Part shown: one piece after another, positions 925-53,906 of the stretch
How positions within the stretch are numbered: position 1 is the first letter of the stretch
Layout of the letters: each line of letters begins with the position of its first letter
DNA from: an uncultured Eubacteriales bacterium
GTDB lineage: Bacteria > Bacillota > Clostridia > Oscillospirales > Acutalibacteraceae
Direction of reading: 5' to 3'
Assembly: GCA_900315605.1 (NCBI GenBank)
Contig: OMZU01000003.1
Coordinates: forward strand, 12,057 to 76,056
Length of the DNA: 64,000 bases
The notes under the pieces: generated by a model
Seen by the model: the letters and a program-made list of their open reading frames with translations, nothing else
The model's database searches: none
What the model was told of the DNA's origin: nothing
Translations under genes and position numbers: made by a program

Positions 925-2274
925 ATGTTTTCTAAAATTTTGATAGCCAACCGCGGAGAGATCGCAGTCAGGATAATCAGAGCCTGCCGCGAAATGGGGA
1001 TCTCAACGGTAGCGATTTATTCCGAGGCAGACAAAAACGCCATGCACGTTCAGCTCGCCGACGAAAGCTACTGCGTCGGCGGAAGCAGGGTGAGCGAAAG
1101 CTACCTTAACATCCCGGCGATCCTCACGGTTGCAGTTGAAAGCGGAGCCCAGGCGATCCACCCGGGCTATGGTTTGCTTTCGGAAAACGCAAAATTTGTT
1201 TCGCTGTGCGAGCAATGCAACATCAACTTTATCGGTCCCACCTCCGAGATGATCCGCAAGCTCGGCGACAAGGACAACGCGCGAAAAACAATGAGAGCCG
1301 CCGGCGTTCCGGTGACTCCCGGCTGCGATATAGTCGAAAATATCGAGGAAGCCAAGGCGGAGGCTGAAAAAATAGGTTTTCCGCTGCTTATCAAGGCGCG
1401 CGCGGGCGGCGGCGGAAAAGGGATCCGCAGAGTTGATTTTATAGAGCAGTTTGAAGAAGCGTTTTTGGCGGCTTCAAGCGAGGCAAAATCGGCGTTTGGC
1501 GACGGAGCCTGCTACCTTGAAAAATTCATTTTCCCGGTAAAGCACATTGAAATGCAGCTTCTCTGCGACAAATACGACAACATAATTTGTCTGGGCGAGA
1601 GAGAATGCTCGATCCAGCGCAAAAACCAGAAAATGATCGAGGAAAGCCCAAGCCCCGCGCTCGACGAAAAAACGCGCAAGCAAATGATGATCGCCGCAGT
1701 AAGAGCGGCAAAGGCTGTAAATTACATAAACGCCGGAACCGTTGAGTTTTTGCTCGACAACAACAGCAATTTTTACTTTATGGAAATGAACACAAGATTG
1801 CAGGTTGAGCACGGCGTGACCGAAATGGTGACCGGGCTTGACATAGTTCAGTGGCAGATCCGCATTGCAGCCGGCGCGATGCTCAGCCGCACCCAGGACA
1901 GCATTTTTACGCACGGCAATGTTATTGAATGCAGGATCAACGCCGAAAATCCCGACAAGGGCTACCGCCCAAGCTGCGGAAGGATCACGCGGCTTCACAC
2001 CCCCGGCGGCTCGTTCGTTCGCTTTGACACGGCGATATATCAGGATTATGTTGTTCCGCCGTATTACGACTCGATGATCGGCAAACTGATCGTTCAGGCA
2101 CGAAGCCGTGCCGAGGCTATCCGCAAGATGAAAATGGCTTTGTCCGAGCTGACGATCGACGGCATCGACATCAACCGCGACGTGCTTGCCGAGATCCTTT
2201 CGGACGAAAGGTTTGAAAGCGGAGAATATACAACCGATTTTATGTCGGATTTTGAAAAACGCAGAAATAACTGA
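925..2274 (+). CDS. accC: Acetyl-CoA carboxylase biotin carboxylase subunit
   Basis: KILIANRGEIAVR, GGGGKG, FMEMNTRLQVEH; ATG 925 preferred over 895. Confidence 0.97.
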   Translation: MFSKILIANRGEIAVRIIRACREMGISTVAIYSEADKNAMHVQLADESYCVGGSRVSESYLNIPAILTVAVESGAQAIHPGYGLLSENAKFVSLCEQCNINFIGPTSEMIRKLGDKDNARKTMRAAGVPVTPGCDIVENIEEAKAEAEKIGFPLLIKARAGGGGKGIRRVDFIEQFEEAFLAASSEAKSAFGDGACYLEKFIFPVKHIEMQLLCDKYDNIICLGERECSIQRKNQKMIEESPSPALDEKTRKQMMIAAVRAAKAVNYINAGTVEFLLDNNSNFYFMEMNTRLQVEHGVTEMVTGLDIVQWQIRIAAGAMLSRTQDSIFTHGNVIECRINAENPDKGYRPSCGRITRLHTPGGSFVRFDTAIYQDYVVPPYYDSMIGKLIVQARSRAEAIRKMKMALSELTIDGIDINRDVLAEILSDERFESGEYTTDFMSDFEKRRNN

Positions 2275-2292
2275 TTTTATTTTTAACATACT

Positions 2293-3150
2293 ATGGACTT
2301 ATTTTCTTTTGTAAAACCCAAAAATGAGCTTGAATCCAAGCCCGACGAAAAACAAAAGCCCTTTGTGCCCGAGGAAATGTGGGTCAAATGCCCAAGCTGC
2401 AATCAGATGCTTCTTACCACCGATTTGCAGGAAAACCTCTATGTCTGCACGCGCTGCAATCATCATTTTAGGATCAGCGCGCAAAAAAGGCTGGATATGC
2501 TTGCCGACAGCGGAAGCTTTGCGGAATTTGACGCGGAGATGAAAAGCAGAAATATACTGGACTTTCCCGGCTATGACAAAAAGCTTGAAAAGGCGGAGAA
2601 AAACGCCAACGAAAGCGTGACCTGCGGCGAATGTACGATAGGCGGTATAAAAACCGTGCTTTGCGTTATGAACGCCGACTTTATGATGGGCAGCATGGGC
2701 ACAGTCACCGGCGAAAAAATAACGCGCGCTTTTGAATACGCAACCGAAAACCGGCTTCCGGTCATTGTTTGCACCGTTTCGGGCGGAGCAAGAATGCAGG
2801 AGGGCATCTTGTCGCTCATGCAAATGGCAAAGACCTCCGGCGCAGTCAAAAGACACAGCGACGCAGGCTTGCTTTATATCACAGTTTTGACCGACCCGAC
2901 CACAGGCGGAGTCACGGCTTCGTTTGCAATGGAGGGCGACATCATCCTTGCCGAGCCTGACGCGCTCGTTGCGTTCGCAGGACCCAGGGTCATTGAGCAG
3001 ACTATCCGTCAAAAGCTTCCAAAGGACTTTCAAACCTCTGAATTCGTTATGCAAAAGGGCTTTATCGACGCGGTCGTTGATCGCGGAGCCTTGAAGGAAA
3101 CGCTTTCAAAGCTGCTTAAAATGCACGGATACAAGGAGGCGAAGCAATGA
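2293..3150 (+). CDS. accD: Acetyl-CoA carboxylase carboxyltransferase beta subunit
   Basis: WVKCPSC..CTRC zinc finger, [13 protein letters not shown]. Confidence 0.97.
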
Positions 3151-3959
3151 CGGCATATGAAAGAGTTATGGCGGCAAGAGATTCCAAAAAGCTGACTGCC
3201 GTTGATTATATCAGCCATATGTTCGGCGACAGCTTCTTTGAGCTGCACGGCGACAGAAGATACGAGGACGACAAGGCGATCGTCGCAGGGCTTGCAATGC
3301 TTTATGACACTCCGATCACCGTTATCGGAATTGAAAAGGGCAGAAACACCAAGGAGCGCGTGGAGCGCAATTTCGGTCAGGCTCACCCCGAGGGATACCG
3401 AAAAGCCCTAAGGCTGATGAAGCAGGCCGAAAAATTCCGCCGTCCTGTTCTGTGTCTGGTAGACACAAGCGGCGCGTTCTGCGGGATCGGCGCAGAAGAA
3501 AGAGGTCAGGGTCAGGCAATTGCCGAAAACCTGATGGAAATGATGACGCTGAAAACCCCTGTTCTCACGATCCTTATCGGAGAAGGCGGAAGCGGCGGCG
3601 CGCTCGCGCTTGCGGTAGCCGACGAGGTTTGGATGCTCGAAAACTCGGTTTATTCGGTAATTTCTCCCGAGGGCTGCGCTTCTATTCTTTGGAAAGACAG
3701 CTCAAAGGCACCCGAGGCGGCGGAGGCATTGAAGATGACCGCTCAGGATCTGTTCGGGCTCGGCGTGATCGAGCGTATCATTCGCCAGCCAAAGGCAGAC
3801 GACAAGGCGATGTTTGAGAGCTTAAAGCTGCTTGTGAGCAGGACCTTTGAGAAAAACCTGGCTATGACAAACGAAGAGCTGCTTGAGCACCGCTACGGCA
3901 GATTCAGAAAAATAGGGGCAAATCAGAATAATACCTTGAGCGACAAGGAAACAACATAA
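3147..3959 (+). CDS. accA: Acetyl-CoA carboxylase carboxyltransferase alpha subunit
   Basis: [24 protein letters not shown]; overlaps accD stop (ATGA). Confidence 0.96.
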
Positions 3960-17815: not shown

Positions 17816-18457
17816 ATGGGAGATATTGCTATTAATACTGAAGCTTATAAAGCCATACTCGATTTGTCTGACAAATATGCAGCTGATTTAAAAAACCAAA
17901 TTGATTTGCGTACAGAAGAAATGAAGAGCGATGATAAATCTCATTATCTTATATATAAAGTACTTGGCGTTTCCGACAAAGAAGGCAACCTCATAGATTT
18001 GTATCAAAACAAAGGGCGTTTTCTTTACAAGTATGCAGGAGCGTTTTTAGAAGAAGCCGCGATGTATTGTATCAAATACAAGTATCCCGAAGCCGTTAAA
18101 TCAAAAATACCAAATACTGTCGGAGCCCGTCCAAAAACCTTTGAAATAGACTGTCTGGTCGGAGATAAAGCACTCGAAATAAAATGGCGTGACGCTACGA
18201 CAGACGGCGATCATATAACAAAGGAGCATACTCGTGTTAAGGTCATAAAAGAGAACGGATATATTCCGATAAGAGTGATGTTTTATTATCCTCAAAGGCT
18301 GCAAGCGCAAAAAATACAGGAAACCTTGGAAACGCTGTATAAGGGAATTGGCGGAAAATATTATTACGGCGACTATGCCTGGAATTATATAAAGGAATTT
18401 ACGGGGATCGATTTGCTCGAAATATTAAAGCAAATTGCAACCTCACGCAACATTTGA
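17816..18457 (+). CDS. Type II restriction endonuclease, ApaLI-like family
   Basis: HYLIY.VLG, YQNKGRFLYKYAG.FLE, FEID..EIKWRDATTDGDH PD-(D/E)xK core; next to an MTase; AT-rich. Confidence 0.8.
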   Translation: MGDIAINTEAYKAILDLSDKYAADLKNQIDLRTEEMKSDDKSHYLIYKVLGVSDKEGNLIDLYQNKGRFLYKYAGAFLEEAAMYCIKYKYPEAVKSKIPNTVGARPKTFEIDCLVGDKALEIKWRDATTDGDHITKEHTRVKVIKENGYIPIRVMFYYPQRLQAQKIQETLETLYKGIGGKYYYGDYAWNYIKEFTGIDLLEILKQIATSRNI

Positions 18458-19659
18458 TGATTTATAATTCAGATTGTCTTGAAGTAATGAAAGAGCTTGC
18501 AGATGCTTCTATTGATATGATATATCTTGACCCGCCGTTTTATTCCCAAAAAAAACATTCCTTAGCAAATTCAAAAGGAAAAAAATATGAATTTTCAGAT
18601 ATCTGGACATCTTTAAACCAGTATTTAGATTTTATGAGAGTTCGTATTACAGAAATGAAAAGAATACTGAAGCAAAACGGCAGTATCTTTCTTCACTGCG
18701 ATACATCAGCCTCACATTATTTGCGCATATTGCTTGATGATATTTTTGGTCAAAACAATTTCAGAAGTGAAATAATTTGGTCATATAAAAGATGGTCAAA
18801 TTCCAGAAAAGGGTTGTTGCCTGCACATCAAACTATTTTTTACTATACAAAAGGGAAAAGCTACAAATTCAACAGAATACTTCGTAATTATTCTGCAACA
18901 ACAAACATAGATCAAATTTTGCAGGAAAGAGAAAGAAATAAAACAGGAAAATCCGTTTACAAGCGCGACGAATTCGGCAAAATCGTTGCTGCCAAAGAAA
19001 AAAAGGGCGTACCGATTTCAGATGTTTGGGAAATACCGTTTCTGAATCCAAAAGCAAAAGAAAGAACAGGATATCCAACTCAAAAACCGATCGAATTGCT
19101 GGAAAGAATCATTAAAATCAGCACGGACGAGGGAGATTGTGTTTTAGATCCTTTTTGCGGAAGCGGAACAACTCTGGTAAGTGCCAAATTATTGGGTCGT
19201 AAATATATCGGAATCGACATAAACAAAGATGCTGTTGACATTTCGCAAAAAAGGCTTGAAGAACCCTACAAAACCAAGTCTGTTTTATTGCAGGTCGGAG
19301 AAGACGCATATAAAACCAAAACAGAAGAAGAGCTTTCAATTTTAAAGCAATTTGACTGTGAAATCGTTCAAAGGAACAAGGGCATTGACGCATTGTTAAG
19401 GAAGCACTACTTTAACCGTCCTGTTGCCGTAAAAATACAGCGAGCCCATGAATCTTTTTTTGAAGCTGTCAATTTACTGAATAATGCAAGTATAAAAAAG
19501 GGGTGCAGCTATGGAATATTGATCACATATGAAACAAAACGGAGCGATCAATACAGCATTCCTTCAAATATCATTATAATAAATCGTTACAGCGCACAAA
19601 TCGAAATGGAGTTGAAAGAAAGAGTGATAAGCGTAATCAAACAGGCAGCAAGCGAATAG
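18457..19659 (+). CDS. Beta-class amino (N4-C/N6-A) DNA methyltransferase with C-terminal extension
   Basis: YLDPPF motif IV before YPTQKP and DPFCGSGTT motif I; TGATG coupling to the REase. Confidence 0.92.
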   Translation: MIYNSDCLEVMKELADASIDMIYLDPPFYSQKKHSLANSKGKKYEFSDIWTSLNQYLDFMRVRITEMKRILKQNGSIFLHCDTSASHYLRILLDDIFGQNNFRSEIIWSYKRWSNSRKGLLPAHQTIFYYTKGKSYKFNRILRNYSATTNIDQILQERERNKTGKSVYKRDEFGKIVAAKEKKGVPISDVWEIPFLNPKAKERTGYPTQKPIELLERIIKISTDEGDCVLDPFCGSGTTLVSAKLLGRKYIGIDINKDAVDISQKRLEEPYKTKSVLLQVGEDAYKTKTEEELSILKQFDCEIVQRNKGIDALLRKHYFNRPVAVKIQRAHESFFEAVNLLNNASIKKGCSYGILITYETKRSDQYSIPSNIIIINRYSAQIEMELKERVISVIKQAASE

Positions 19660-25929: not shown

Positions 25930-25944
25930 AAAAAACTACAGGCA

Positions 25945-25985
25945 AAAAATTGGCGGAGAGCTTTCGCCCTCTGCCGCTTTTGTTT
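25945..25985 (-). terminator. Terminator after CotH paralogue 2; shares core with 28659-28700
   Basis: ggcggagagctttcgccctctgcc hairpin. Confidence 0.7.
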
Positions 25986-25991
25986 AGCTTA

Positions 25992-28403
25992 TCATTCGTT
26001 TGTATTCCACGTATCCCAATAATAGTGTCCTTTTTTATCTATTATAAAATGATAGTGCCCATTTCCATCGACTTCATTCTTCAGAAAATATCCGGTCGCA
26101 TAGCGGTCAAGCGGAATATCTACAGTTTGCTCTCTTTGACCGTTGCTTATACCGCTGAAAATCACATGGTCTGCTTCGGCAGGCACAGTAAATTCATACT
26201 GTTCTTCACCGAGTCCGTTTGTTCCGACCTTTTTCATCATTCCGCCGGGCCAAGCGCACATCACATATCCGGCTCCGTTCCAGCAATGGCAGTAAACTTT
26301 GTTTGTATCCCAGTGCCGTGAATTGCTGAACAGAACTTTATATTCAGAGGAAAGCGGGTTACCTTGATTTACAGAAACTGTTTCTTGTTTTGGCTGTAAA
26401 CTCTCGGGAAAAGCAGCAAGATAATACTGAATATTTGTTGCGTCATTAACAGTAACATAGCCGTCACTGTCGTAGTCCGCAAGCCCGGACTGCTTAGAAT
26501 CAAAATCTACAAAGTTAGCCAAATACTTTTGGATCTCAGTCGCATCCCCGACGTCAATAGCATAGTTGCGATCAACATCTCCTGTTTTGAAAGGATAATA
26601 CTTGTAAAACTCATTTGACAGCCATGCCGCGCGATTATTCAGCCAATCCGCCGCATATTTGAATGCTCCCTCGAAAGAATCCGTATAATAGATTTCATCC
26701 TTTCCGCCGGATTCGGTGTACTCGCCTGTGTACTTGTTGAACTCCGATTTTTTCATGCGTATATTGTGGTTTGCTATCCAATCGCTGTTTATTTTTCTTG
26801 ACCAGCCGCTTGTGTAATTCATATACGCTGAATTTTTTACCAATTCAAGATATTTTTCGGAAGTATATATCTCCTTGTCCATATTTTTGTTTTTTGTATT
26901 ACCGGTAAAGTGATCTATTGCCGGAAGAAAGCTCTCGAACCATATCCTCGGAGCAGCAGCCATGATCTGATGATTTCGGCTGATTCGGTTCATAATATTG
27001 ATCGTATAGGTCGCGTTCATACTCTTGCCCTTGTATTTACACCACCAGCCGGTCGGAAGCGTATAGTCATTTACACCCATGTCTCCGAGGTCGTCCGCAA
27101 CACCCTTGGCGTTGCCCAGAGAATTGTCGTAATCCCAAACCGGCGAGCCGTAGAATTTATAATTGCCGTTCTCGTCCGGCTTGTATACAAAATACAGGCT
27201 CGACGTGCCCGAATCCCAGTTTTTGCCAAGCTCATTGATAAGATAAAGCTTTGTAATCGAATCCACGTCGGCGTACCGAGATATATCTCCGTTGTTTGTG
27301 GTCGCGGAGTAGAACTCATTGAATTTATCCCTTACGTAATTCTTGACCTGTTCGTATGCGGGGGTTTTACTAGCAGGCTCCGGCCACTTTATTGTGATCT
27401 TGAGATCGTCCTTGCATTTTACAAAGTAATCTTCACCCTCGGTCGCCTTGGAATCGACCTCGCAAAGGAACGGAAAATCCTCCTTGACCGTTTGTTTATC
27501 GGCATTAAGATAATCAGTATCTTTGCCAAAATCCGAAATCAGCTCGGAGCTGCCTACATCAACCTTTTGACACATCTGATACGAGCCCCAGTAGAAGCCG
27601 TTGCTGTAAAAATCAACGTAGCGCGAATCGGAAGAGTAAGGAATATCGACCGCGTCGGCAAGGTCATACAGGAAGCGGTTTCTCGAAAGCGAATCGTCCT
27701 GGTAATTTGCAAGCAGCGAATATTTTTTGCCCTCGCTCATTCCGCCGACAGAAACCTTTTCTTTATATGTAATGTTAAAGGATTTTTTTGTTACACCGTT
27801 CCAGGTCGAGTTGCCCCTGCCCTTGATTTTTTTGATCGAGGTGTTGTCGATCGTCCCGTCGGGGCTTACGATCGCGCCGTCCGCCTCTGCCGAGCGGCTC
27901 TTGTCCGCTGTTAGGTAATCCATAAGATAGGTTCCCACTCCGCTTGGGTTAGCCTCTACGTTTTTGTTGTTTATGTAGATCGCGGCTTCGGCGTTGGATC
28001 TCATAAATCTCAGGCTGTTATGCGTGCCGTCCACACTGACCTGAAAGCTGTCCGTCGTGTTATAGCTTACGGTTGCGGTTTGCTTTGGCGAGATCGTAAC
28101 TCCGTTCACAGAAACGTCGGTATTAAATGCGTTGTAGATATCGACCTGAGTATCGCTTGCCGAAGAGGGCAGGAAGAAGTACTTTGACTGATCGTTCAAA
28201 TTTTTTAAATCCGTGTCGTGAACGCTCTGCCATTTCTGCCATGCCTGGGTATCGTTCGAGCCGACGACCGCGTGAACGTACAGTGCTTCATCGGTTTTGA
28301 ACGAGGGGGCAGCGACTTTTTCCTGTGCTTCTTCGGCATAAACCGCCGGGACTGCTCCTGTCAGCATAATTACCGACAAGAGGATTGATAAAAGTTTTTT
28401 CAT
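25992..28403 (-). CDS. Secreted CotH-family kinase with type I dockerin and C-terminal CBM26-like starch-binding module
   Basis: Signal peptide; KIKGRGNSTW, LLANYQD.SL.RN, PVWDYDNSLG; GDVDRNYAIDVGDATEIQKYLA..ADYDSDGYVTVNDATNIQ; VLFSNS..W...YCHCW..AWPG..M. Confidence 0.88.
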   Translation of the reverse strand: MKKLLSILLSVIMLTGAVPAVYAEEAQEKVAAPSFKTDEALYVHAVVGSNDTQAWQKWQSVHDTDLKNLNDQSKYFFLPSSASDTQVDIYNAFNTDVSVNGVTISPKQTATVSYNTTDSFQVSVDGTHNSLRFMRSNAEAAIYINNKNVEANPSGVGTYLMDYLTADKSRSAEADGAIVSPDGTIDNTSIKKIKGRGNSTWNGVTKKSFNITYKEKVSVGGMSEGKKYSLLANYQDDSLSRNRFLYDLADAVDIPYSSDSRYVDFYSNGFYWGSYQMCQKVDVGSSELISDFGKDTDYLNADKQTVKEDFPFLCEVDSKATEGEDYFVKCKDDLKITIKWPEPASKTPAYEQVKNYVRDKFNEFYSATTNNGDISRYADVDSITKLYLINELGKNWDSGTSSLYFVYKPDENGNYKFYGSPVWDYDNSLGNAKGVADDLGDMGVNDYTLPTGWWCKYKGKSMNATYTINIMNRISRNHQIMAAAPRIWFESFLPAIDHFTGNTKNKNMDKEIYTSEKYLELVKNSAYMNYTSGWSRKINSDWIANHNIRMKKSEFNKYTGEYTESGGKDEIYYTDSFEGAFKYAADWLNNRAAWLSNEFYKYYPFKTGDVDRNYAIDVGDATEIQKYLANFVDFDSKQSGLADYDSDGYVTVNDATNIQYYLAAFPESLQPKQETVSVNQGNPLSSEYKVLFSNSRHWDTNKVYCHCWNGAGYVMCAWPGGMMKKVGTNGLGEEQYEFTVPAEADHVIFSGISNGQREQTVDIPLDRYATGYFLKNEVDGNGHYHFIIDKKGHYYWDTWNTNE

Positions 28404-28658
28404 GCTTGATTGCACCTCCATGAATAAAAATATAAATTTAAAATCTTCTTTTTGCAGATTTTTTATCCCGGATACTCCACAAAAATTTAGAAAAATAGTA
28501 TAACATCTTTATTCTTTTTATTCAAGAGTTATTTCAAATATATGCAATCATATTTGCTGAAAAAAAGTGCCGGTGGGCACTCTTGCCACACTTTCCAAGC
28601 TGCACTGATAACAAAATCCGTGTTCAAAGAAGGGGACACACAGCTTCCTATAAATCAA

Positions 28659-28700
28659 AAAACGGGGCAGAAAGCTTTCGCCCTCTGCCCCAAATTTTAT
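28659..28700 (-). terminator. Terminator after CotH paralogue 1
   Basis: ggggcagaaagctttcgccctctgcccc hairpin with A-run. Confidence 0.8.
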
Positions 28701-28759
28701 TGGTTTTTGATTATAACGCCAAAGGCTGTTTGCCGAAATTCAGTGTTAAGGTTTTGATA

Positions 28760-31090
28760 CTATTCTGGTGTAACTGTCCATGTTGCCCACAGATGACGTC
28801 CGGTTATCGGTTCGGTATCCTCAAGCGCGTAGTAGCCGGTTACTGTGCGATCGAGCGGTATATTTGCCGTTTGCTCTGCGTTGTTCGTGAAGATGACACG
28901 GTCAATACCTTCCGGTACCGGGAACTTGTACTGATCCTGATCATACTCGTTCTTTCCGACATATGTCATCGGAGAGCCGGGCCAGTTCACTATCGGGGTA
29001 CCGGTGTCGCTGTACCAGCAATAGCAGTAAATCGTTCCTTCCCAGCCCAGAGAATTTGTGAACAGAACGTTGTATTCTTCTTCAGGCACGTCTGTCGGAG
29101 GATCTGCCAGCTCAGCAAGAACAAGCTGGATAAGTGTTGCGTCGTTAATATTAACTACCTTGTCGCGGTTGTAGTCTGCAAGCTTGTATTGTTCAAAGTC
29201 AAGCGTTTCAAGATCTGCCAAATGCTTTTGGATCTCGGTAACGTCGCCGATGTCAAGTGTTCCGTTGCGGTTTACGTCGCCGGGTTCGTGCGATGGAACA
29301 TAGGAGCTGTAATACTGCTTTGACAGCCATGCAGCACGATAATTGAGCCAGTCGGCCGCATAATTGAACACGCCGGAGAAGGTGTTTGGATAATACTTGT
29401 TTTCGTATTCTGTGTATACGCCTGTGTAATCGTTGAACTCAGCCCTCTTGAGCATTGTGTGATCGGCTACCCAGCCGCTTGTTTTGATTGCCCAGCCGCT
29501 GGTGTAGTTCATGTTTGCGGAATCCTCGATCAAAGTAAGATAGTCGCTTGCCTGATAAAGCTCTTTGTTGATGGCTGCGCTCGGGACCTTGCCGGTGAAG
29601 TGATTTACCGCAGGAAGGAAGCACTCGAACCAAATTCTGGGTGAAGCTTCAATGATCTGTTCATTGCGGCAGATCCTGTTCATAACGTTGTTTGTGTAGT
29701 TTGAATTTCTGCTCTTGCCCTTGTATTTGCACCACCAGCCGGTCGGAAGAGTATAGTCGGTCACGCCCATGTTTGAAAGATCGCCGCCTACGCCGACTGC
29801 GTTGCCCAGCGAGTTGTCATAGTCCCATACAGGCGAGCCGAAGAATTTGTAGTTGCCGTCTGCGTCCTGCTTGTGAACAAGGTACATACTAGACGCACCG
29901 GAATCCCAGTTTTTGCCAAGCTCATTAATGAAATAAAGCTTTGTAAGAGAGTCAACATCGCCGTATTGTGAAATATCTCCGTTTTGGGTCGTTGTAGCAT
30001 AGAATCTGTTGAACCTGTCTCTTACGTAATTCTTGACCTCGTCGTAGCCGGGATCGCCAACCTCAAGCTCGGGAGCCTTGATCGTGATTTTGAGATTGTC
30101 GGAACAGGTCACAAAGTAATCCTCGCCCTCCTTTGCGCTGGCGTCAACCTCGCAAAGGAACGGGAAGTCCTCTTTAACAGTGTCGTCTGCGTTGAGGTAA
30201 TCGTCCTCGTCAAAGTCCGGAACAAGCTCCGAGCTGCCGACCTCGATCTTCTGGGTCATCTGATATGAGCCCCAGTAGAAGCCGTTGCTGTAAAAATCAA
30301 CATAGCGTGAATCGGAAGCATAGGGAATGTTTACCGCGTCGCCGAGATCATAGAGGATTCGGTTTCTTGAAAGAGAGTCATCCTGGAAATTTGCAAGGAT
30401 AGAATATTTCTTTCCCTTGGGCATTCCGCCGATAGAAACCTTGCTGTTATATGTGATGTTAAACGGCTTCTTCGAGACGTTGTTCCAGGTTGTGTTACCT
30501 CTGCCCTTGATTTTCTTGATAGCTGTGTTGTCTATCTTTCCGTCGGGGTCAACTATCGCGCCGTCAGCCTTTGCCGAGCGGCTCTTGTCAGCCGTGAGGT
30601 AGTCCATAAGATAGGTTCCCACTCCGCTTGCGTTGCCCTCGATGTTAGTATTGTTTATATAAATCGCAGCTTCGGCATGAGATTTCATAAATCTAAGGCT
30701 GTAATGTGTGCCGTTCACATTGACAGGATAGCTGTTTGTTGTGTTATAGCTTACGGTTGCGGTTTGCTTTGACGGGATGGCAACTCCGTTCACGGTTACG
30801 CCGGTATTAAAAGCGTTGTAGATATCGACCTGAGTATCGCTTGCCGAGGAAGGCAGGAAGAAATACTTTTCCTGATTATTAGCAACGTTAAAATCCATAT
30901 CGTGAACGCTCTGCCAAGCCTGCCAAGCCTGGGTATCATCAGAACCTACAACAGCGTGAACATACAGCGCGTTCACGGCGTTGAAGGAGGGAGCGGCTGT
31001 GGGATCCCCCTCTGCTGCCGCGGCGGGAAACGCCGGGATCACGCCAATCAGCATAATTGCCGAAAGAACGATTGATAATAGTTTTTTCAT
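28760..31090 (-). CDS. Secreted CotH-family kinase with dockerin and CBM26-like module (tandem paralogue)
   Basis: Same architecture: KIKGRGNTTW, SPVWDYDNSLG, GDVNRNGTLDIGDVTEIQKHLA..ADYNRDKVVNINDATLIQ, VLFTNSLGW...YCYCW..NWPG.PM. Confidence 0.88.
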   Translation of the reverse strand: MKKLLSIVLSAIMLIGVIPAFPAAAAEGDPTAAPSFNAVNALYVHAVVGSDDTQAWQAWQSVHDMDFNVANNQEKYFFLPSSASDTQVDIYNAFNTGVTVNGVAIPSKQTATVSYNTTNSYPVNVNGTHYSLRFMKSHAEAAIYINNTNIEGNASGVGTYLMDYLTADKSRSAKADGAIVDPDGKIDNTAIKKIKGRGNTTWNNVSKKPFNITYNSKVSIGGMPKGKKYSILANFQDDSLSRNRILYDLGDAVNIPYASDSRYVDFYSNGFYWGSYQMTQKIEVGSSELVPDFDEDDYLNADDTVKEDFPFLCEVDASAKEGEDYFVTCSDNLKITIKAPELEVGDPGYDEVKNYVRDRFNRFYATTTQNGDISQYGDVDSLTKLYFINELGKNWDSGASSMYLVHKQDADGNYKFFGSPVWDYDNSLGNAVGVGGDLSNMGVTDYTLPTGWWCKYKGKSRNSNYTNNVMNRICRNEQIIEASPRIWFECFLPAVNHFTGKVPSAAINKELYQASDYLTLIEDSANMNYTSGWAIKTSGWVADHTMLKRAEFNDYTGVYTEYENKYYPNTFSGVFNYAADWLNYRAAWLSKQYYSSYVPSHEPGDVNRNGTLDIGDVTEIQKHLADLETLDFEQYKLADYNRDKVVNINDATLIQLVLAELADPPTDVPEEEYNVLFTNSLGWEGTIYCYCWYSDTGTPIVNWPGSPMTYVGKNEYDQDQYKFPVPEGIDRVIFTNNAEQTANIPLDRTVTGYYALEDTEPITGRHLWATWTVTPE

Positions 31091-31337
31091 AATAATTGCA
31101 CCTCCGTTTTTTAAATAAAAATTCTGCAATAATCCACAAAAATATTATAACATTATTTTTGTTTTTATGCAAGAGATATTTCGTATTCGTACAAACTTTG
31201 CCTATAAATAAAAAATTTCTGGTTAAAAATAGCTTTTTTCACCGAAAATTCATATAGATTTCACTAAATATATCTTTATTTTTTTCTTTGGATTTGATAT
31301 AATAAAGCTGTAATATTTTTTGCAAAGGAAGTGGAGT

Positions 31338-32318
31338 ATGCAAAACAATAAAAAAACCGGCTTTCTCGCTGTAGCTCTCGCTTCGCTGATAGTCGCTTCA
31401 ACAGCAACAGCCAGCGTATTATCGGGATGCGGCGGAAACGAGGACACCGACGAAACCGTTGCGGTTACGGAAACCAGCGTGGTTTCAAGAGTTGTTGACG
31501 GAGTTTATACCGACGAATTCGGTAACATTCTTTCAACGACCCCGGACGGCAAAAAACAAGAGAACGCGGGGGGAACGGTAAGCCCCGAGGCTCTTAAAAA
31601 GGCTAAGGAAAACGACGAAAAAAGTAACGTCGATTCCAAAGCCGACAACAAGGATCCCGAAAAATCCGAAAACGACGAAAAGCAGGACAACGACAAAAAG
31701 TCGGACAGCAAATCAGAAAAATCCGAAAACGGAGGCGGCAGCAATAACGACGCCGCAGACTCCGACGACGGCAGAGGCATAACCGACATTAACCAGCAGA
31801 CCGCCGAGCAAAGAAAGGAATTTGAAGAAGCCAAGAAGAATATTGAGGAGCAAAAGCCAAACCGCGATAACGAAAAGATCGAAAGCTCCAAGGAACTGAT
31901 CCTTGACGGAAACAAGTACCAAATCGGCGACACCGTAACCTGCGTTTATACCCTCAGCGCACCCGAAAAGCTTCAGAACTTTCAGGGCGAGATCTCTTAT
32001 GACAACAGCAAGATCAACTGCGTAAGAGCATGGCTTGACGGAAGTGCCGCCTATGGCGGATTGCTTAACTACAAGCTTGACGGAAAGATCAAGTTTAACG
32101 GTGTTAATATCGGCTCGGGCTTTAAGTACAACAGCGAGGGCAACTTTATTATCGCTGTGTTTGAGGTCACTGATTCAGGCAAGGTTGACACAAGTCTTGA
32201 CTGGCAGGTAGTTACAGGCGTTTCCGGCGACAAGCTTGTTACAGACGGCAAGGCTGTTGACGGACTGACTGTTAACAAGAGCTACACCTACGGCGATACT
32301 AAATACGAGGACGAATAA
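31338..32318 (+). CDS. Lipoprotein with charged low-complexity linker and C-terminal cohesin-like domain
   Basis: LSGC lipobox; K/D/E/S/N-rich spacer; GDTVT.VY.L..Q..I.YD...G.IKFN..FEV..G pattern recalls Ruminococcus cohesins. Confidence 0.6.
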   Translation: MQNNKKTGFLAVALASLIVASTATASVLSGCGGNEDTDETVAVTETSVVSRVVDGVYTDEFGNILSTTPDGKKQENAGGTVSPEALKKAKENDEKSNVDSKADNKDPEKSENDEKQDNDKKSDSKSEKSENGGGSNNDAADSDDGRGITDINQQTAEQRKEFEEAKKNIEEQKPNRDNEKIESSKELILDGNKYQIGDTVTCVYTLSAPEKLQNFQGEISYDNSKINCVRAWLDGSAAYGGLLNYKLDGKIKFNGVNIGSGFKYNSEGNFIIAVFEVTDSGKVDTSLDWQVVTGVSGDKLVTDGKAVDGLTVNKSYTYGDTKYEDE

Positions 32319-32393: not shown

Positions 32394-33086
32394 CTACTGT
32401 TCCTCATTTTCTTCACGGCTTACATAATTATCAGATCTCATGCTGACCATGCTTGCCGCAGCGGTGGTGCTTGTGGCTTTGTTAAGATTGATCCACTGAT
32501 CCTTTTCCTCAGCCATGACGCGCTCGATCCTTACCAGGAAGATTTTTTCCTTTAGGTCGGCAATAGTCTCTGAGTTAAACGGCTTTGAGGAGTCACATTC
32601 TTCTTCAAATGTCTTTTTTAGCGAAGCGTAGCTGTAGTCGCCTGTACACGAGAGAAAAAGGCTGAGCTCTGTGTGCATTGTTTCGGCTGTGGTGCGGAAC
32701 TGAATCCATTTTTGCTGCACCTTAAAGAGGGTAAGCAGCGACGTGCAAATCGCCGTGAGCGCGGACAATATGCTGACGGTCAGCTTTACAACAAAATTTT
32801 CGGTAAAAGCGGAAAGCACCGTTACCGCCGTGGGCAAAACAATGGCTATGATGCTCAGGAGATAGAACATCTTTTTGCACTTTCTGGCACTTTGATGATA
32901 CCAGTACACCGACTGGATAAAGCGTTTTCTTGTGTATTCGTTTCTAAAGATGCATTCCCCATTTTCAAAAACCATATCATACAGCTTGCGAAAATCGCCG
33001 CTTTTTTCAAGGTCGTTTTGAAGATCCTCTTCGGTATATTCCTTGGGCGTCTTGGTCTTTTTGGCTTTTTTGTTCTCGTCTTTCAT
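32394..33086 (-). CDS. DUF4231 / SLATT-family two-TM protein
   Basis: W..Y..SA..K..F then two TM helices, W..FRTTAE....E...F....G.Y motif. Confidence 0.8.
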   Translation of the reverse strand: MKDENKKAKKTKTPKEYTEEDLQNDLEKSGDFRKLYDMVFENGECIFRNEYTRKRFIQSVYWYHQSARKCKKMFYLLSIIAIVLPTAVTVLSAFTENFVVKLTVSILSALTAICTSLLTLFKVQQKWIQFRTTAETMHTELSLFLSCTGDYSYASLKKTFEEECDSSKPFNSETIADLKEKIFLVRIERVMAEEKDQWINLNKATSTTAAASMVSMRSDNYVSREENEEQ

Positions 33087-33765: not shown

Positions 33766-34569
33766 TTATTGTTTTTCGCAAATAACAAGGTATCGGTTAA
33801 ACAAGCCGTTTCCGGCAGGAACGCAGGTTATCAGAGTGAGAAGCTGGCGGTCTTTTTTGATATAGACATCCGTGCTGTTGTTAGGCAAAACCACCTTGGT
33901 TTCGATCACTTGGTAGTCGATCTGATCCCAGTAATTGGTTATTGTTACCGTGTCGCCGATCGAGAGGCCTCGCAGATTGTCAAAGAAGATCCTTCCGATA
34001 TAGCCTGTATGTCCGGCAATGGCGCAGTTGGTGTTTGTATCGTTGAGCGGAAGCGAGGTGCTTGCAAGATGCGCCGCGCCGTAGCTCATCATATAATCGT
34101 TCGCTCCCAAATAAACGGGCAGTCTCATTCCGATCGTAGGCGCGGAAATATAGCAGTACACGCCGTCGTAGATCCCGTAATCTGACAGGTCAAGCACAGC
34201 CTCGGAATAGTCCAGATCATAGACAGTGCCCTGACCCTTTTTCAGCCTATTGTTGTATGCCACGCTGTCGTTATAAAGCCGCTCCAAATCAATGGCAAAC
34301 ACGATTCTTTCTTCGGATATGCGCACGCCCTCTTCGTTGATCGGGTAGCCCTCTTCGTCTATATAGCCTTTTTCCCGGGCTTCTTCGGCTGTTTCAACAT
34401 CCTTGTAGGTCTCTACCGCAGATTCCTTTGACTTGTCGAACGTGTCGGATATCGATTCAGCCTGTAGCTTTCCGATATGATTTGAAACCGGAGGAAAAAG
34501 CAGAAAGCCCATGCCTGTCAAAAGCATTAATGACGCAATGATCGTAAGGATCTTTTTCCACATAATCAC
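33766..34569 (-). CDS. Class C sortase
   Basis: N-terminal TM with FPPVSN, GAAHL..TSLP, IAGH, LTLITC..R. Confidence 0.88.
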   Translation of the reverse strand: MIMWKKILTIIASLMLLTGMGFLLFPPVSNHIGKLQAESISDTFDKSKESAVETYKDVETAEEAREKGYIDEEGYPINEEGVRISEERIVFAIDLERLYNDSVAYNNRLKKGQGTVYDLDYSEAVLDLSDYGIYDGVYCYISAPTIGMRLPVYLGANDYMMSYGAAHLASTSLPLNDTNTNCAIAGHTGYIGRIFFDNLRGLSIGDTVTITNYWDQIDYQVIETKVVLPNNSTDVYIKKDRQLLTLITCVPAGNGLFNRYLVICEKQ

Positions 34570-35489
34570 ACCTCACCCTTGTCAAGCTCAGCCGATTGTT
34601 CCTTTGAAGCAACGTGTTTTCCTTTTTTGCGGCGTGAAACGATTATCAAAACAATAATCACAATAAGCAGTACAAATGAACCGAGAATGATTCCTATTGT
34701 TAGGTACGAAAGCTTGTAGCCAAAGAAGAACATTCCGTCGTTTCCGGCGTTCATAGTTACACCGGATGGCATATCATCGCCCTCGTCGGGTTCATATTCA
34801 ACTCTTTCTCCCCTGACAAGCAAACGGTGGGTGTTGATCGTATAGGGGGTGCAGGTCAGCAGCGTTACATAATCCTTGCCTTCGATCACGTGCAGATCCT
34901 GTGTTTCGGTGGGCAAAATGACCTTGATTTGATCCACCTGATATTTGAGCGTGCGGTTGAGGACATGAATATAAAATTCGTCGCCCTCCTCCATCTCTAC
35001 CAAATAGTCAAAAAAGGTCTCGGTTGGAAACGCACTGTGCGCAGAGATAACGCTGTGGGTGCTCGGACCGCCGATCGGAAGCGCGGTGTTTTCGAGGTGA
35101 CCGGCTCCCTTGGTCAAGATCTCGGTTGAGGTTCCGTGATATATCGGCAAAAAAACATTGATTTTCGGAATATCTATGTATCCAATCAAGCCCTTGTCGT
35201 TTGTGTTAAAGGTTTCCATATAACGCGCGCCGATTTTGGCGTAGCTTTCCTCGTCAAATGGGTCGGTGAGGATAACTGTGTTGAGCAGGCTCTGGTTGTA
35301 TTCCTCAGCCTCGGCGAACATAGCCTTGATATCCTCGGGATCTTCTTTTTTGGCGTCGTCAAAATAAGCTGCCGCGTGGCTGCGCATTTCAATATTGTTT
35401 GCAACCGAGCTTATGAGCGGATAGGTGAGGATCCCCAAACCAATAGTAAAAATCAGCAAAATTATAATAATAGGTATAGCTTTTTTCAT
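34566..35489 (-). CDS. Class C sortase with DPF lid and C-terminal TM
   Basis: YPLIS, LTDPF lid, GAGHLE.T.LP.GG.STHSVISAH, VTLLTCTPY.INTHRLLVRG. Confidence 0.93.
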   Translation of the reverse strand: MKKAIPIIIILLIFTIGLGILTYPLISSVANNIEMRSHAAAYFDDAKKEDPEDIKAMFAEAEEYNQSLLNTVILTDPFDEESYAKIGARYMETFNTNDKGLIGYIDIPKINVFLPIYHGTSTEILTKGAGHLENTALPIGGPSTHSVISAHSAFPTETFFDYLVEMEEGDEFYIHVLNRTLKYQVDQIKVILPTETQDLHVIEGKDYVTLLTCTPYTINTHRLLVRGERVEYEPDEGDDMPSGVTMNAGNDGMFFFGYKLSYLTIGIILGSFVLLIVIIVLIIVSRRKKGKHVASKEQSAELDKGEV

Positions 35490-35631
35490 TTTGGATTCCT
35501 TTTCGTTTAGCATTTGATAGTATTATACACCTAACCATACTATTTTTCAATGGTAATACAACAAAATATTATCTGCACAAAAAGGCTCCGAACCCACACC
35601 GGATCCGGAGCTGTTTTATGTTGTTTTATTA

Positions 35632-51328: not shown

Positions 51329-52465
51329 TTGGACGATAACAAGGAAATATTAAATCAAAACACCCAAAACGCCGAAGCTGCCGTTGAGCAGGCAGCCGAA
51401 AATGCCGCCGGCGCCGCAGAAGCTGCTGCGGAAAGCGTTGAAAATGCAGCCGAGAATGCTGCTGAGGCCGTAGCGGAGGGCGCAGAAAATGCTGCAAATG
51501 CCGTAACGGAAGGCGTTGAGAATGTCGCTCAGACCGCTTCTTCTCTCACGGATTCGCTTGAAGGAGCCGCTTCGCAAATCGCTCCCGAGGCTCCGAAAAA
51601 AAAGAAAAGGCTGATCCAGACCCCGGTTATAATCGCCTTTGCGCTTGTTTGTGCGGTCGCACTCGGATTTTTGGTTTTCAAGCTCTTCTTCAACAATGAT
51701 GTTGCTGGAACCTGGGTTTATAAATATCCCCAGCCCACCCAAGAAGAAATGATGGGACTTGAATCCACGATAGACGAAGCCGACAGAGATTATGTTGACT
51801 ACTACTTTGATTTCCAGACCACAGCCGCCGAAATGCAGGAGGGCTCCTCAATTGAGGGCGCGAAGGTCGCCAAGGTCACGATCGGTACTCTCACCTACGA
51901 GGGCTACTACCTGACCTCTGCTACCGAGGAAGGCTCAACTCTGACCGTAACGGTGCCAAACGTTATGTCGGGCTCGTTCGACTATGAGCTTTCGGGCAAT
52001 ATGTTCACCGGCAGAGAGCTGAAGCTTATCAGCCCCTATGCAGACCAGACCCAGGGCGGCGAAGGCGAGTTCATCTTTAAGTCAGCGACCTACAGCGTTC
52101 CAAAGCTTGAGCGCGAGGGCGAGTTCAAGACCGACGACAAGCTCTTTGGCAAGTGGGTATATGACGACGGAACCAATATCCTCACCTATGATTTCAAGGA
52201 GGACGGTTCGGCGCACTACACCGAGAAGATCTCTTCAAACTCAATGTACGGCGAGCCTATGCTTTCAAAAATCAGTCTTGACGCACTTTACACCTGCGAG
52301 GACGGAAACTTTACGCTTTTCTATTACTACAATGACCTCTACATTACAGGCAAGGCAAATGAGATGGCGGCGGTTTATTCGTTCGACGGCGACAAGCTGC
52401 TTATCAACGGACTTGAATTTGTAAGAGAGGGCGCGTCAACCGCCGACTCGGCAAAGCAATCATAA
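51329..52465 (+). CDS. Single-pass membrane protein: Ala/Glu/Asn-rich N-terminus, TM, two GxW beta-rich extracellular domains
   Basis: TTG start with AGGAGG RBS; AENAA repeats; VAGTWV and LFGKWV domain starts. Confidence 0.7.
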   Translation: MDDNKEILNQNTQNAEAAVEQAAENAAGAAEAAAESVENAAENAAEAVAEGAENAANAVTEGVENVAQTASSLTDSLEGAASQIAPEAPKKKKRLIQTPVIIAFALVCAVALGFLVFKLFFNNDVAGTWVYKYPQPTQEEMMGLESTIDEADRDYVDYYFDFQTTAAEMQEGSSIEGAKVAKVTIGTLTYEGYYLTSATEEGSTLTVTVPNVMSGSFDYELSGNMFTGRELKLISPYADQTQGGEGEFIFKSATYSVPKLEREGEFKTDDKLFGKWVYDDGTNILTYDFKEDGSAHYTEKISSNSMYGEPMLSKISLDALYTCEDGNFTLFYYYNDLYITGKANEMAAVYSFDGDKLLINGLEFVREGASTADSAKQS

Positions 52466-52477
52466 ACGAATAGTTTC

Positions 52478-52509
52478 AGGCAACAGCACAGCCCGTGCTG
52501 TTGCCTTTT
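52478..52509 (+). terminator. Intrinsic terminator
   Basis: aggcaacagcac agccc gtgctgttgcct then T run. Confidence 0.85.
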
Positions 52510-52529
52510 GTGTTTTTAGGGAGATTTCT

Positions 52530-53906
52530 GTGACTAGTAATCACTCACATCGGTTCACAATTGCATTGCTCTCGGCAGCAGTTATCGCGGCGGCTTTTTT
52601 AGTAAAGCCCTGCCTTTTTGCGGCTGATTCCGCCGAAAAGGATATCTCCGAAGCACTTGCAGAATGTCACAGGGTGTATCCGCTCAGCGGCTCAAGGGGC
52701 GGTTTCCTTTACGGCTACACCGCAAACACGCTCTATTCCGCCCAGCTTTTGCCCGACGAAGCCTTGACATACGTTACCGTCAGCGGCATAATCCGCGCCG
52801 TGAGCCACAGCGGAGACTGCGCCTACGCGCTTTATGACAGCTCATCTTCTCAGCGCGATTCGTGCGTGCTGAAGCTGAACATCGAAAGCGGCGAATATGA
52901 AAGCTTTTCCGTCGGCAAGCTCGGCAGTGCCGACAAGACCTCCTTTGCGGTCAGCGACGACGAAGCATTTGTTATCAAAACCGACGATATCTATGCCTAC
53001 GTTCAAAGCTTCCGGCTCGGTGGAAATGAGCTTCACAAATATAAATTCAATTCAAATTTAAGCAGGCTGTTTCAGGACGGCAGCAATGTTTTTGCCCTGC
53101 TTTATACAGGCGAGCTGTACCAAATCGGCAACGGAAGCTCGCAATATGTCGCGCGGCTTGAAACCGACAGCACGCCGTTCAATGCCGGAGACGGATATAT
53201 CGTCACCGACAAGCATGAGCTGGTTTCGCTTTATGACGGGAGCACGGAATATATGATGAGTGCAAAGCCAAAGCTAACGACCGCCTCGGAATATGGGCTG
53301 ATAACGCACAGCGGCAGCTCGGTAAAATGCGGCAGCCGCGAGGTTTTGCGCTGCTCAAGCCCTGCCTATGTTTTATCCTGCAAGAATCTTTGCGCTGCTG
53401 TTTATTCCGATTTCAGCTACGACATCACAAAGCTGAATACCGAAAATGATAACGCTAAACCTGACAAATCACCGGCAGAAAGCAACCGCAGCCTCCGCAA
53501 CAACAGCGTCGGTCAAAGTGATGACGACGAAATCTCGCTCACCATTCCCTATACGATACGCAACAGAACGATCTGCGATGTTGAATCCTCGCTGAGCGTT
53601 TCGGAATTTTTCTCGCGCTTTGACAAAAAACCCGAGCTATACAACGCAGACGGCGCGCGAATTTACAACGGAAACATCAAAACAGGATACACCATCAGAT
53701 ACAACGACGCTTTATACGAAATCGCGGTAAAGGGAGACTTGAACTGCGACGGCAAATTAAAGGACAACGACGTTAGCGCGCTCATGCTCCATTTAGCCGG
53801 CAAAAAGCCCCTGACCGGCGCGAGCCTGATCGCCGCAGACTATAACCTCGACAGCCGGGTCAGCAACGCCGATCTGGTGCTTATGGCAAAGGCAGCAGAA
53901 AAATAG
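52530..53906 (+). CDS. Secreted protein with C-terminal type I dockerin
   Basis: N-terminal hydrophobic signal; KGDLNCDGKL...D..ADYNLDSRVSNADLVLM. Confidence 0.8.
   Translation: MTSNHSHRFTIALLSAAVIAAAFLVKPCLFAADSAEKDISEALAECHRVYPLSGSRGGFLYGYTANTLYSAQLLPDEALTYVTVSGIIRAVSHSGDCAYALYDSSSSQRDSCVLKLNIESGEYESFSVGKLGSADKTSFAVSDDEAFVIKTDDIYAYVQSFRLGGNELHKYKFNSNLSRLFQDGSNVFALLYTGELYQIGNGSSQYVARLETDSTPFNAGDGYIVTDKHELVSLYDGSTEYMMSAKPKLTTASEYGLITHSGSSVKCGSREVLRCSSPAYVLSCKNLCAAVYSDFSYDITKLNTENDNAKPDKSPAESNRSLRNNSVGQSDDDEISLTIPYTIRNRTICDVESSLSVSEFFSRFDKKPELYNADGARIYNGNIKTGYTIRYNDALYEIAVKGDLNCDGKLKDNDVSALMLHLAGKKPLTGASLIAADYNLDSRVSNADLVLMAKAAEK

Follow-up and report, generated by a model that had tools for sequence, protein, structure and literature searches.

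CotH-family kinase-like proteins with dockerins and starch-binding modules, encoded beside a Sca4-type cohesin gene in an uncultured Eubacteriales bacterium

CotH-family proteins with dockerins are already known from cellulosomes, for example those of Clostridium thermocellum (CseP/Cthe_0044 and Cthe_0239), Acetivibrio cellulolyticus and anaerobic fungi. The sole activity demonstrated for a CotH is Ser/Thr protein phosphorylation of Ser-rich repeats: Bacillus subtilis CotH polyphosphorylates those of CotG and CotB, and cotG is the divergent neighbor of cotH. Resistant-starch breakdown by the Ruminococcus bromii group feeds much of the gut butyrate economy, and the amylosome of R. bromii has already been inventoried in detail. 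Here we describe two tandem genes, A and B, in a 64,000-nucleotide stretch (hereafter the window) of contig OMZU01000003.1 from an uncultured Eubacteriales bacterium. Their products combine an export signal, a kinase fold with conserved catalytic motifs, a dockerin and a C-terminal family 26 carbohydrate-binding module (CBM26; divergent in A, where it falls short of the Pfam threshold); the genome supplies cohesin partners, and the pairing with a divergent sca4-type gene is conserved in the R. bromii genus. We tentatively prefer to read A and B as exported components of the amylosome, namely CotH-family phosphotransferases that are catalytically competent and act on protein rather than on glucan.

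The CotH-dockerin type itself is thus not new; what is new is a CBM26-bearing member beside a Sca4 cohesin. Databases name proteins of the A/B type "CotH kinase family protein [Ruminococcus sp.]". In the literature searched, we found no paper linking CotH to the amylosome, starch or CBM26, and none treating the R. bromii CotH gene as encoding a dockerin protein.

Architecture and active site of the tandem genes

An earlier reading of this DNA from its letters alone (the original prediction) described two tandem secreted CotH paralogs with type I dockerins, CBM26-like C termini and duplicated regulatory cores. The genes are indeed two minus-strand open reading frames (ORFs) in the same orientation (Table 1), with maximal extents of 25992-28421 for A and 28760-31129 for B, and the proteins are 63% identical end to end. 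The probable start of B is the ATG at 31090 (MKKLL...), 10 nt past a GGAGG. The first ATG of A (28421) overlaps its GGAGG, so the equivalent MKKLL start at 28403 is likely. Both N termini begin MKKLLSI and continue with a hydrophobic core and an A-x-A-like cleavage site, as read from the sequence, and a Sec signal peptide is predicted on each.

Table 1. Positions of the features of the locus, numbered along the window
Feature	Coordinates	Strand	Description
Gene A	25992-28403	-	signal peptide, N-domain, CotH kinase-like, dockerin, divergent CBM26; 803 aa from MKKLL
A promoter-like site	28497-28525	-	TTGAAT, 17 nt, TG-TATACT (extended -10); ribosome-binding site GGAGG 28415-28419
A N-domain	~27954-28301	-	equivalent of B residues 30-150
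A CotH kinase fold	26604-27836	-	D397, D424, D426
A dockerin	26409-26582	-	Ca loops DVDRNYAIDVGD and DYDSDGYVTVND
A CBM26	~26049-26354	-	YCHCW...AWPG
A intrinsic terminator	25943-25977	-	core common with B terminator
Gene B	28760-31090	-	signal peptide, N-domain, CotH kinase-like, dockerin, CBM26; 776 aa
B promoter-like site	31144-31172	-	TTGCAT, 17 nt, TG-TATAAT (extended -10); ribosome-binding site GGAGG 31101-31105
B N-domain	30641-31003	-	residues 30-150, beta-sandwich; AlphaFold2 confidence (pLDDT) >90 in region
B CotH kinase fold	29291-30523	-	residues 190-600: KGRGN (195), KKPF (207), NWD (D396), WDYD (D423, D425)
B dockerin	29117-29284	-	Ca loops DVNRNGTLDIGD and DYNRDKVVNIND
B CBM26	28778-29068	-	YCYCW...NWPG
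B intrinsic terminator	28655-28692	-	13-bp stem and T run
Sca4-type scaffoldin	31338-32318	+	signal peptide with lipobox VLSG-C, 155-aa stalk, 135-aa C-terminal cohesin

Both genes match the Pfam CotH profile (PF08757) well above its cut-off of 23.8 bits (79 and 66.9 bits). When an AlphaFold2 model of B (predicted local distance difference test, pLDDT, 82.4) was searched with Foldseek, the sole strong match in the PDB besides dockerins was Bacillus cereus CotH (5jd9/5jda; for 5jd9, E 2.5e-8 and a target-based template modeling, or TM, score of 0.68). Neither a direct phmmer search with A nor a profile of alignment A1 reached 5jd9 in the PDB; the sequence link to it runs through a short paralog from the same genome (L001), and the fold link through Foldseek. 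Active-site residues were accordingly mapped by alignment (short paralog to 5jd9, then short to long paralogs in alignment A2), not by superposition. D228 and D251 of B. subtilis CotH are catalytic (as cited in PMC7821199), serving as catalytic and metal-binding Asp, and the D228Q and D251A changes abolish activity. Aligned to 5jd9, the short paralog has N-F-D and P-W-D-Y-D motifs 23 residues apart, which is the D228-D251 spacing, and the bridging alignments carry the two residues to N-W-D396 and P-V-W-D423-Y-D425 of B; D397, D424 and D426 are the mapped counterparts in A of D396, D423 and D425. The aspartates aligned to D228/D251, together with KGRGN, KKxF and DDSLSRNR, are invariant in 34 homologs, and these positions, with the catalytic-site motifs (KGRGN, KKxF, NxD, PxWDxD), are at least 90% conserved in 41 diverse representatives whose overall identity is 29-48% (17% in one row). 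The alignments thus bear out the earlier impression of intact kinase motifs in A and B. The C-lobe carries an insertion of ~60 residues relative to the short paralogs, which has no significant Pfam match when searched alone; NCBIfam has no match to A or B.

This conservation is the main reason to doubt a non-catalytic role, in which the CotH fold would bind a protein, host or plant ligand as a structural or adhesive part, with the dockerin and CBM26 adding to starch adherence. A binding function has been proposed for the CotH invasins of Mucorales, structural as well as regulatory roles have been suggested for cellulosomal CotH proteins, and many amylosome dockerin proteins are binders only. 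The two catalytic loops of B are also poorly modeled (pLDDT <50), and five residues past the catalytic Asp, A and B have Ser where B. cereus has Asn, in a part of the alignment of modest confidence. However, a pure scaffold does not need catalytic motifs that are invariant or nearly so across the 41 divergent representatives, and fungal cellulosomal CotH proteins reportedly hydrolyze ATP, a finding said to be Lillington's of 2023. Because the active site is conserved, we consider this role improbable.

C-terminal to the kinase fold, the type I dockerins expected from the first reading were recovered with Pfam (Dockerin_1, PF00404; 23.8 bits for A and 27.7 for B, cut-off 22.9). A and B each retain two intact Ca-binding loops of the pattern D-x-[DN]-x-[DN]-...-D, and the B model matches dockerin structures in Foldseek with TM scores (target) of 0.8-0.9. 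The claim of a CBM26-like C terminus holds directly for B (PF16738, 41.6 bits, cut-off 28.1). The C terminus of A has no Pfam CBM26 match at E<=0.1, yet its alignment with the C-terminal CBM26 of R. bromii Amy10 scores 48 bits, and a homolog 97% identical to A carries a precomputed PF16738 match. The aromatic binding residues of RbCBM26 are Y53/Y55 and W63; compared with Amy10 by eye, the aromatic platform reads Y-x-Y...W(PG) in B and Y-x-H...W(PG) in A. A family profile matched the dockerin-CBM26 tails of Amy10 (E 1.4e-38) and Amy16 (E 3.5e-36), so the tail of A and B is the cassette used by amylosome amylases. With regard to specificity, a private dockerin type for CotH proteins, which would have spoken for a dedicated cohesin partner, was considered and rejected: ordinary dockerins of the genome show 50-59% identity to those of A and B, which are themselves 54% identical, against a median of 45% over all dockerin pairs in the genome. 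As a separate observation, A and its closest homolog (P0002) are 97% identical over the first 600 residues and 86% over the full length (window 25992-26600 compared). The dockerin/CBM26 tail of A therefore seems to evolve, or to be exchanged, much faster than the kinase part.

The regulatory sequences of the two genes correspond as well, as had been noticed at the outset. The sigma-70-like promoter cores have ~40 of 47 bases in common, the ribosome-binding site GGAGGTGCAAT is identical, and the terminators contain an identical 17-nt core, GGCAGAGGGCGAAAGCT. Because all three match, the whole transcription unit, from promoter to terminator, was duplicated in tandem. In a tree of the N-domain and CotH part, the A and B clades are sisters (100/100), with stem lengths of 0.26 for A and 0.055 for B. 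Orthologs of both copies occur in a sister species, "uncultured Ruminococcus sp. Sheep_1_mag_57", one matching B at 85% and the A-like copy lying at an adjoining contig end.

The host is a starch-degrading Ruminococcus of rumen or gut, from the R. bromii group. Its assembly (2.42 Mb in 93 contigs) contains four CotH genes, all with dockerins, and holds a large amylosome-type system of ~65 dockerin ORFs, 46 CBM26 modules and several cohesins, among them a 1964-aa multi-cohesin protein. Targeting of A and B to the enzyme complex and to starch, which was proposed on less evidence, is well supported at this level by the dockerins, the CBM26 modules, the cohesins, the Amy10/Amy16 cassette and the cohesin gene next door. 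Relatives are named Ruminococcus sp. and come mostly from ruminants, horse, rabbit and chicken; they include strains JE7B6 and YE282, the latter a rumen R. bromii (PMC5814915). The other two CotH-dockerin proteins of the genome are shorter (L001 and L002; C82:22785-24257 and C80:1269-2933; 490 and ~505 aa). They match the full Pfam CotH profile and are without N-domain and CBM26. One of the short paralogs lies ~4 kb from another cohesin gene (C82:19247-19585).

The divergent cohesin gene

Upstream of B, on the opposite strand, lies a gene for a single-cohesin scaffoldin (Table 1). Pfam has no match to its C-terminal domain. However, a profile built from homologs of that domain reached cohesins in the PDB (7urp at 1e-7, also 1tyj, 2y3n and 7uvg), and an AlphaFold2 model of the protein (pLDDT 83) matched 32 cohesin structures at E<=0.001 in Foldseek. 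The best of these is again 7urp, the second cohesin of R. bromii Sca5 (E 6.5e-7). The stalk is low in complexity and charged, being rich in Glu, Lys, Asp, Asn and Ser. Overall, the protein is 33% identical to its homolog in locus L013.

The identity of this gene is best established from gene order. Contig L077, which carries the most abundant ortholog cluster (P0115, 8054 members), has a cohesin gene (320 aa, minus strand, 63-1025), a CotH-dockerin gene (662 aa, plus strand, 1273-3261), pyk (480 aa) and aroK (169 aa), with sigF, spoIIAB and spoIIAA beyond aroK on the opposite strand. In R. bromii L2-63, Sca4 is L2-63_00829 (320 aa, 886358-887320, reverse), and its neighbors are pyk (_00831, 889764-891206, 480 aa), aroL (_00832, 169 aa) and spoIIAB (_00834). 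In L077 as in L2-63, 2444 bp separate the cohesin gene from pyk. Given this collinearity, the neighbor in the window is the ortholog of R. bromii Sca4, and the idea that it is an undescribed scaffoldin was discarded. By the same reasoning, the R. bromii CotH-dockerin ortholog should be L2-63_00830. That tag has no entry in the published Doc1-27 list, although the 662-aa P0115 ortholog has a canonical dockerin with two Ca-binding loops; the list of 27 dockerin proteins thus seems not to include the R. bromii CotH-dockerin ortholog. In R. bromii ATCC 27255 and YE282, genes at this position are annotated "CotH protein".

The pairing extends across the genus. In more than 20 of 61 genomes, one contig holds a cohesin gene and a long CotH gene within ~1 kb of each other, and the head-to-head arrangement was found in 32 of the 56 species-level loci with sufficient upstream flank; it should be noted that these genomes are kin, so neither count is of independent cases.

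An x-x-G-C lipobox (for example VLSGC, VMSGC or LMSGC) was recognized in 27 Sca4-type orthologs, of 46 domain hits, and their stalks have a median length of 129 aa with 24% Ser and 33% Ser+Thr. Given a lipobox after the signal peptide, Sca4-type proteins are predicted to be membrane lipoproteins (e.g., window 31338-32318, L077:63-1025 and L059:1835-2770); in the literature, Sca4 is presumed to be cell-free. According to Ze et al., Coh4 binds most of the dockerins tested. Because of this, and because the dockerins of A and B are ordinary, docking of both proteins to Sca4 is plausible and need not be exclusive.

Candidate substrates and roles

The N-domain of A and B provides a way to follow their subfamily. 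Searched alone, it has no significant Pfam match (Glyco_hydro_2_N, at E 0.0034, fell below the cut-off and was not used), and it found 78 matches among 1.84 billion representative proteins. A CotH match was also present in 39 of the 41 long representatives, and the N-domain lies upstream of CotH in every architecture inspected; this beta-sandwich is specific to the CotH subfamily of A and B. Other Pfam domains in the 39 N-domain+CotH representatives are CBM26 (17), Dockerin_1 (14), Flg_new (10), X25_BaPul_like (4), AMPK1_CBM (4) and CBM_48 (2; AMPK1_CBM/CBM48 taken together, 4), and none belongs to a cellulose-, xylan- or chitin-binding family. The subfamily has thus been fused repeatedly to alpha-glucan-binding modules, in varied arrangements that include CBM26-N-CotH-Doc, 3xCBM26-N-CotH-Doc, N-CotH-Doc-CBM26(x2)-X25 and, without a dockerin, N-CotH-3xCBM26-X25-CBM48-Flg_new (Doc, dockerin; N, N-domain). 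This makes the link to starch stronger than the original prediction knew. The latter was silent on the cellulosomal precedent, and also on the rarity of CBM26 within the genus: the long form (N-domain+CotH) is present in 61 of 61 genomes searched, often as tandem pairs, and only 11 of 63 loci have a C-terminal CBM26, most orthologs being without one.

A relative of 1825 aa (CotH-X25/CBM48-Flg_new) lies directly after a prophage baseplate module (L078:1-7489 and L078:8001-13478). It could be taken for a phage tail fiber, but this was ruled out, as the ortholog in L080 is followed by the same genes (GDSL lipase, DUF4358) with no phage present. A prophage therefore seems to have inserted beside the CotH gene in L078.

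The repeated fusions to alpha-glucan binders speak for an extracellular alpha-glucan kinase, which would transfer phosphate from ATP to glucose at the granule surface and so loosen crystalline packing for amylases. The modules are exclusively alpha-glucan binders; they may be N-terminal, C-terminal or assembled into 3xCBM26-X25-CBM48 arrays, with or without a dockerin, and the family is found in every genome searched of a genus that specializes in resistant starch. POMK, maltokinase and APH are sugar kinases of protein-kinase-like fold. Another kinase of such a fold that acts on a sugar is the xylosylkinase Fam20B (PMC5865150). Against this, phosphorylation of a sugar is not known for any CotH, most orthologs in the genus (including the R. 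bromii type) lack a CBM, and CBM26, with 46 modules in the genome, is a common adhesion add-on. Extracellular ATP is also scarce, and no companion glucan phosphatase turned up, although no search was aimed at one. On balance, glucan phosphorylation by A and B seems unlikely. The wider proposal, that the whole N-domain+CotH subfamily consists of starch kinases that are tethered by CBM26, X25 or CBM48 and by the amylosome and open up resistant starch, would make it an unrelated microbial counterpart of plant glucan, water dikinase (GWD) and the first sugar-directed CotH; we think it unlikely.

Protein is favored as the substrate because the only activity shown for a CotH is on the Ser-rich repeats of CotB and CotG, and because cotG is divergent from cotH. 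We infer docking, starch tethering, catalysis and substrate from the domains and gene order described above, and the steps could be as follows. After export, the dockerin would plug the kinase into cohesins, most obviously that of the lipid-anchored Sca4-type protein next door (general scaffoldins are also possible), and CBM26 would keep the complex on starch. With ATP and Mg2+, the kinase would place phosphate on Ser/Thr residues where surface or amylosome proteins are of low complexity. One candidate for the first substrate is the stalk of the Sca4-type neighbor, which is Ser-rich; the locus would then resemble that of B. subtilis, with its divergent cotG and cotH. Once phosphorylated, the complex on the starch surface would differ in charge, in extension or in turnover.

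Several points weigh against phosphorylation of amylosome proteins by A and B. In the species of the window, the stalk has only 10% Ser (15 of 155 residues) and is rich in Glu, Lys and Asp. The A and B dockerins form no private clade, so a dedicated pairing with Sca4 is based on synteny alone. The Pfam CotH alignment spans only positions 1-221 of the 322 in the profile, and the poorly modeled catalytic loops and the Asn-to-Ser difference noted above also count here. A source of ATP outside the cell would also have to be assumed. Finally, a CBM usually accompanies an enzyme whose substrate is the very polysaccharide to which the module binds, and a subfamily fused only to alpha-glucan binders favors glucan as the substrate.

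As for when the proteins are made, the predicted signal peptides and sigma-A-like promoters with an extended -10 point to proteins that act outside the cell during vegetative growth. In the spore-associated alternative, sporulating cells would make the proteins, which would shape the spore surface as CotH does in Bacillus and might attach spores to starch. R. bromii does sporulate, the family was founded on a spore-coat kinase, and in R. bromii and a distant relative (L077 and L080, respectively) an ortholog lies within 0.7-2.3 kb of the spoIIAA-spoIIAB-sigF operon. Bacillus CotH, however, is not known to have a signal peptide or a dockerin, and A and B have both. Both genes have the promoters just mentioned, and their dockerin-CBM26 tail is one that vegetative amylases share. 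The orientation of CotH relative to spoIIA varies by lineage (intervals L077:5537-6925 and L080:4962-6347), and spoIIA is not adjacent in the window; the proximity probably reflects ancestral gene order rather than co-regulation. A sporulation role is therefore very improbable.

If the ortholog assignment is right, the published list of dockerins omits a kinase that is encoded beside Sca4 and present in every genus genome searched. If that kinase is active, a complex that degrades polysaccharide would have extracellular phosphorylation as one level of its control, with implications for the CotH proteins of cellulosomes, which are unexplained; through A and B, kinases in such complexes become testable on starch. 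Were starch itself the substrate, crystalline starch could be loosened by an enzymatic route that is new, a matter of interest to nutrition and to the processing of starch.

Other genes of the window can be noted briefly. The cohesin gene is followed directly by a gene on the other strand for a DUF4231/SLATT-like protein with two transmembrane segments (32394-33086, 72 bits), and two adjacent sortase genes (33766-35513) lie 1.5 kb from the cohesin gene. An ApaLI-like restriction endonuclease and an N6/N4 DNA methylase (17816-19659) occupy the stretch of lowest GC content (0.37). A further dockerin-bearing ORF of 493 aa (52425-53903) has an N-terminal part that is otherwise without assignment.

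Comparison with described systems

The resemblance to plant glucan, water dikinases and phosphoglucan, water dikinases (GWD/PWD) is one of proposed logic only, namely a starch-binding module joined to an ATP-dependent phosphotransferase. GWD belongs to the PPDK-type phosphohistidine dikinases and bears CBM45 or CBM20. No PPDK-like phosphohistidine or nucleotide-binding domain, CBM45 or CBM20 was matched by Pfam in A or B, which have the CotH fold and no relation to GWD in sequence or fold.

With Bacillus CotH (5jd9/5jda), A and B share the fold and, by alignment, the two catalytic aspartates, and the locus resembles cotH/cotG in that the adjacent divergent gene encodes a Ser-rich low-complexity protein. 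However, the identity to Bacillus CotH is only 12-13%, and A and B differ from it in being secreted (as predicted) and in having a dockerin, CBM26, the extra N-domain and the ~60-residue C-lobe insertion (defined relative to the short paralogs); nor do the genes show any sign of sporulation control.

Within the amylosome, A and B share the dockerin-CBM26 cassette of R. bromii Amy10 and Amy16, but their catalytic module is a kinase fold rather than GH13. The R. bromii Sca4 locus is matched by the collinear contig L077 in protein length (320 aa), in the 2444-bp spacing to pyk and in the aroK that follows. The Sca4-type proteins described here differ from the presumed cell-free Sca4 of the literature in having a lipobox.

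Among the closest described proteins are the cellulosomal CotH-dockerin proteins, for which structural or regulatory kinase roles have been proposed. They too combine a signal peptide, CotH and a dockerin, in genomes with cohesin scaffoldins. A and B differ from them in belonging, as we read the locus, to an amylosome, in carrying CBM26 and a family-specific N-terminal beta-sandwich, in the pairing of the gene with a cohesin gene, and in coming from a subfamily fused repeatedly to alpha-glucan binders.

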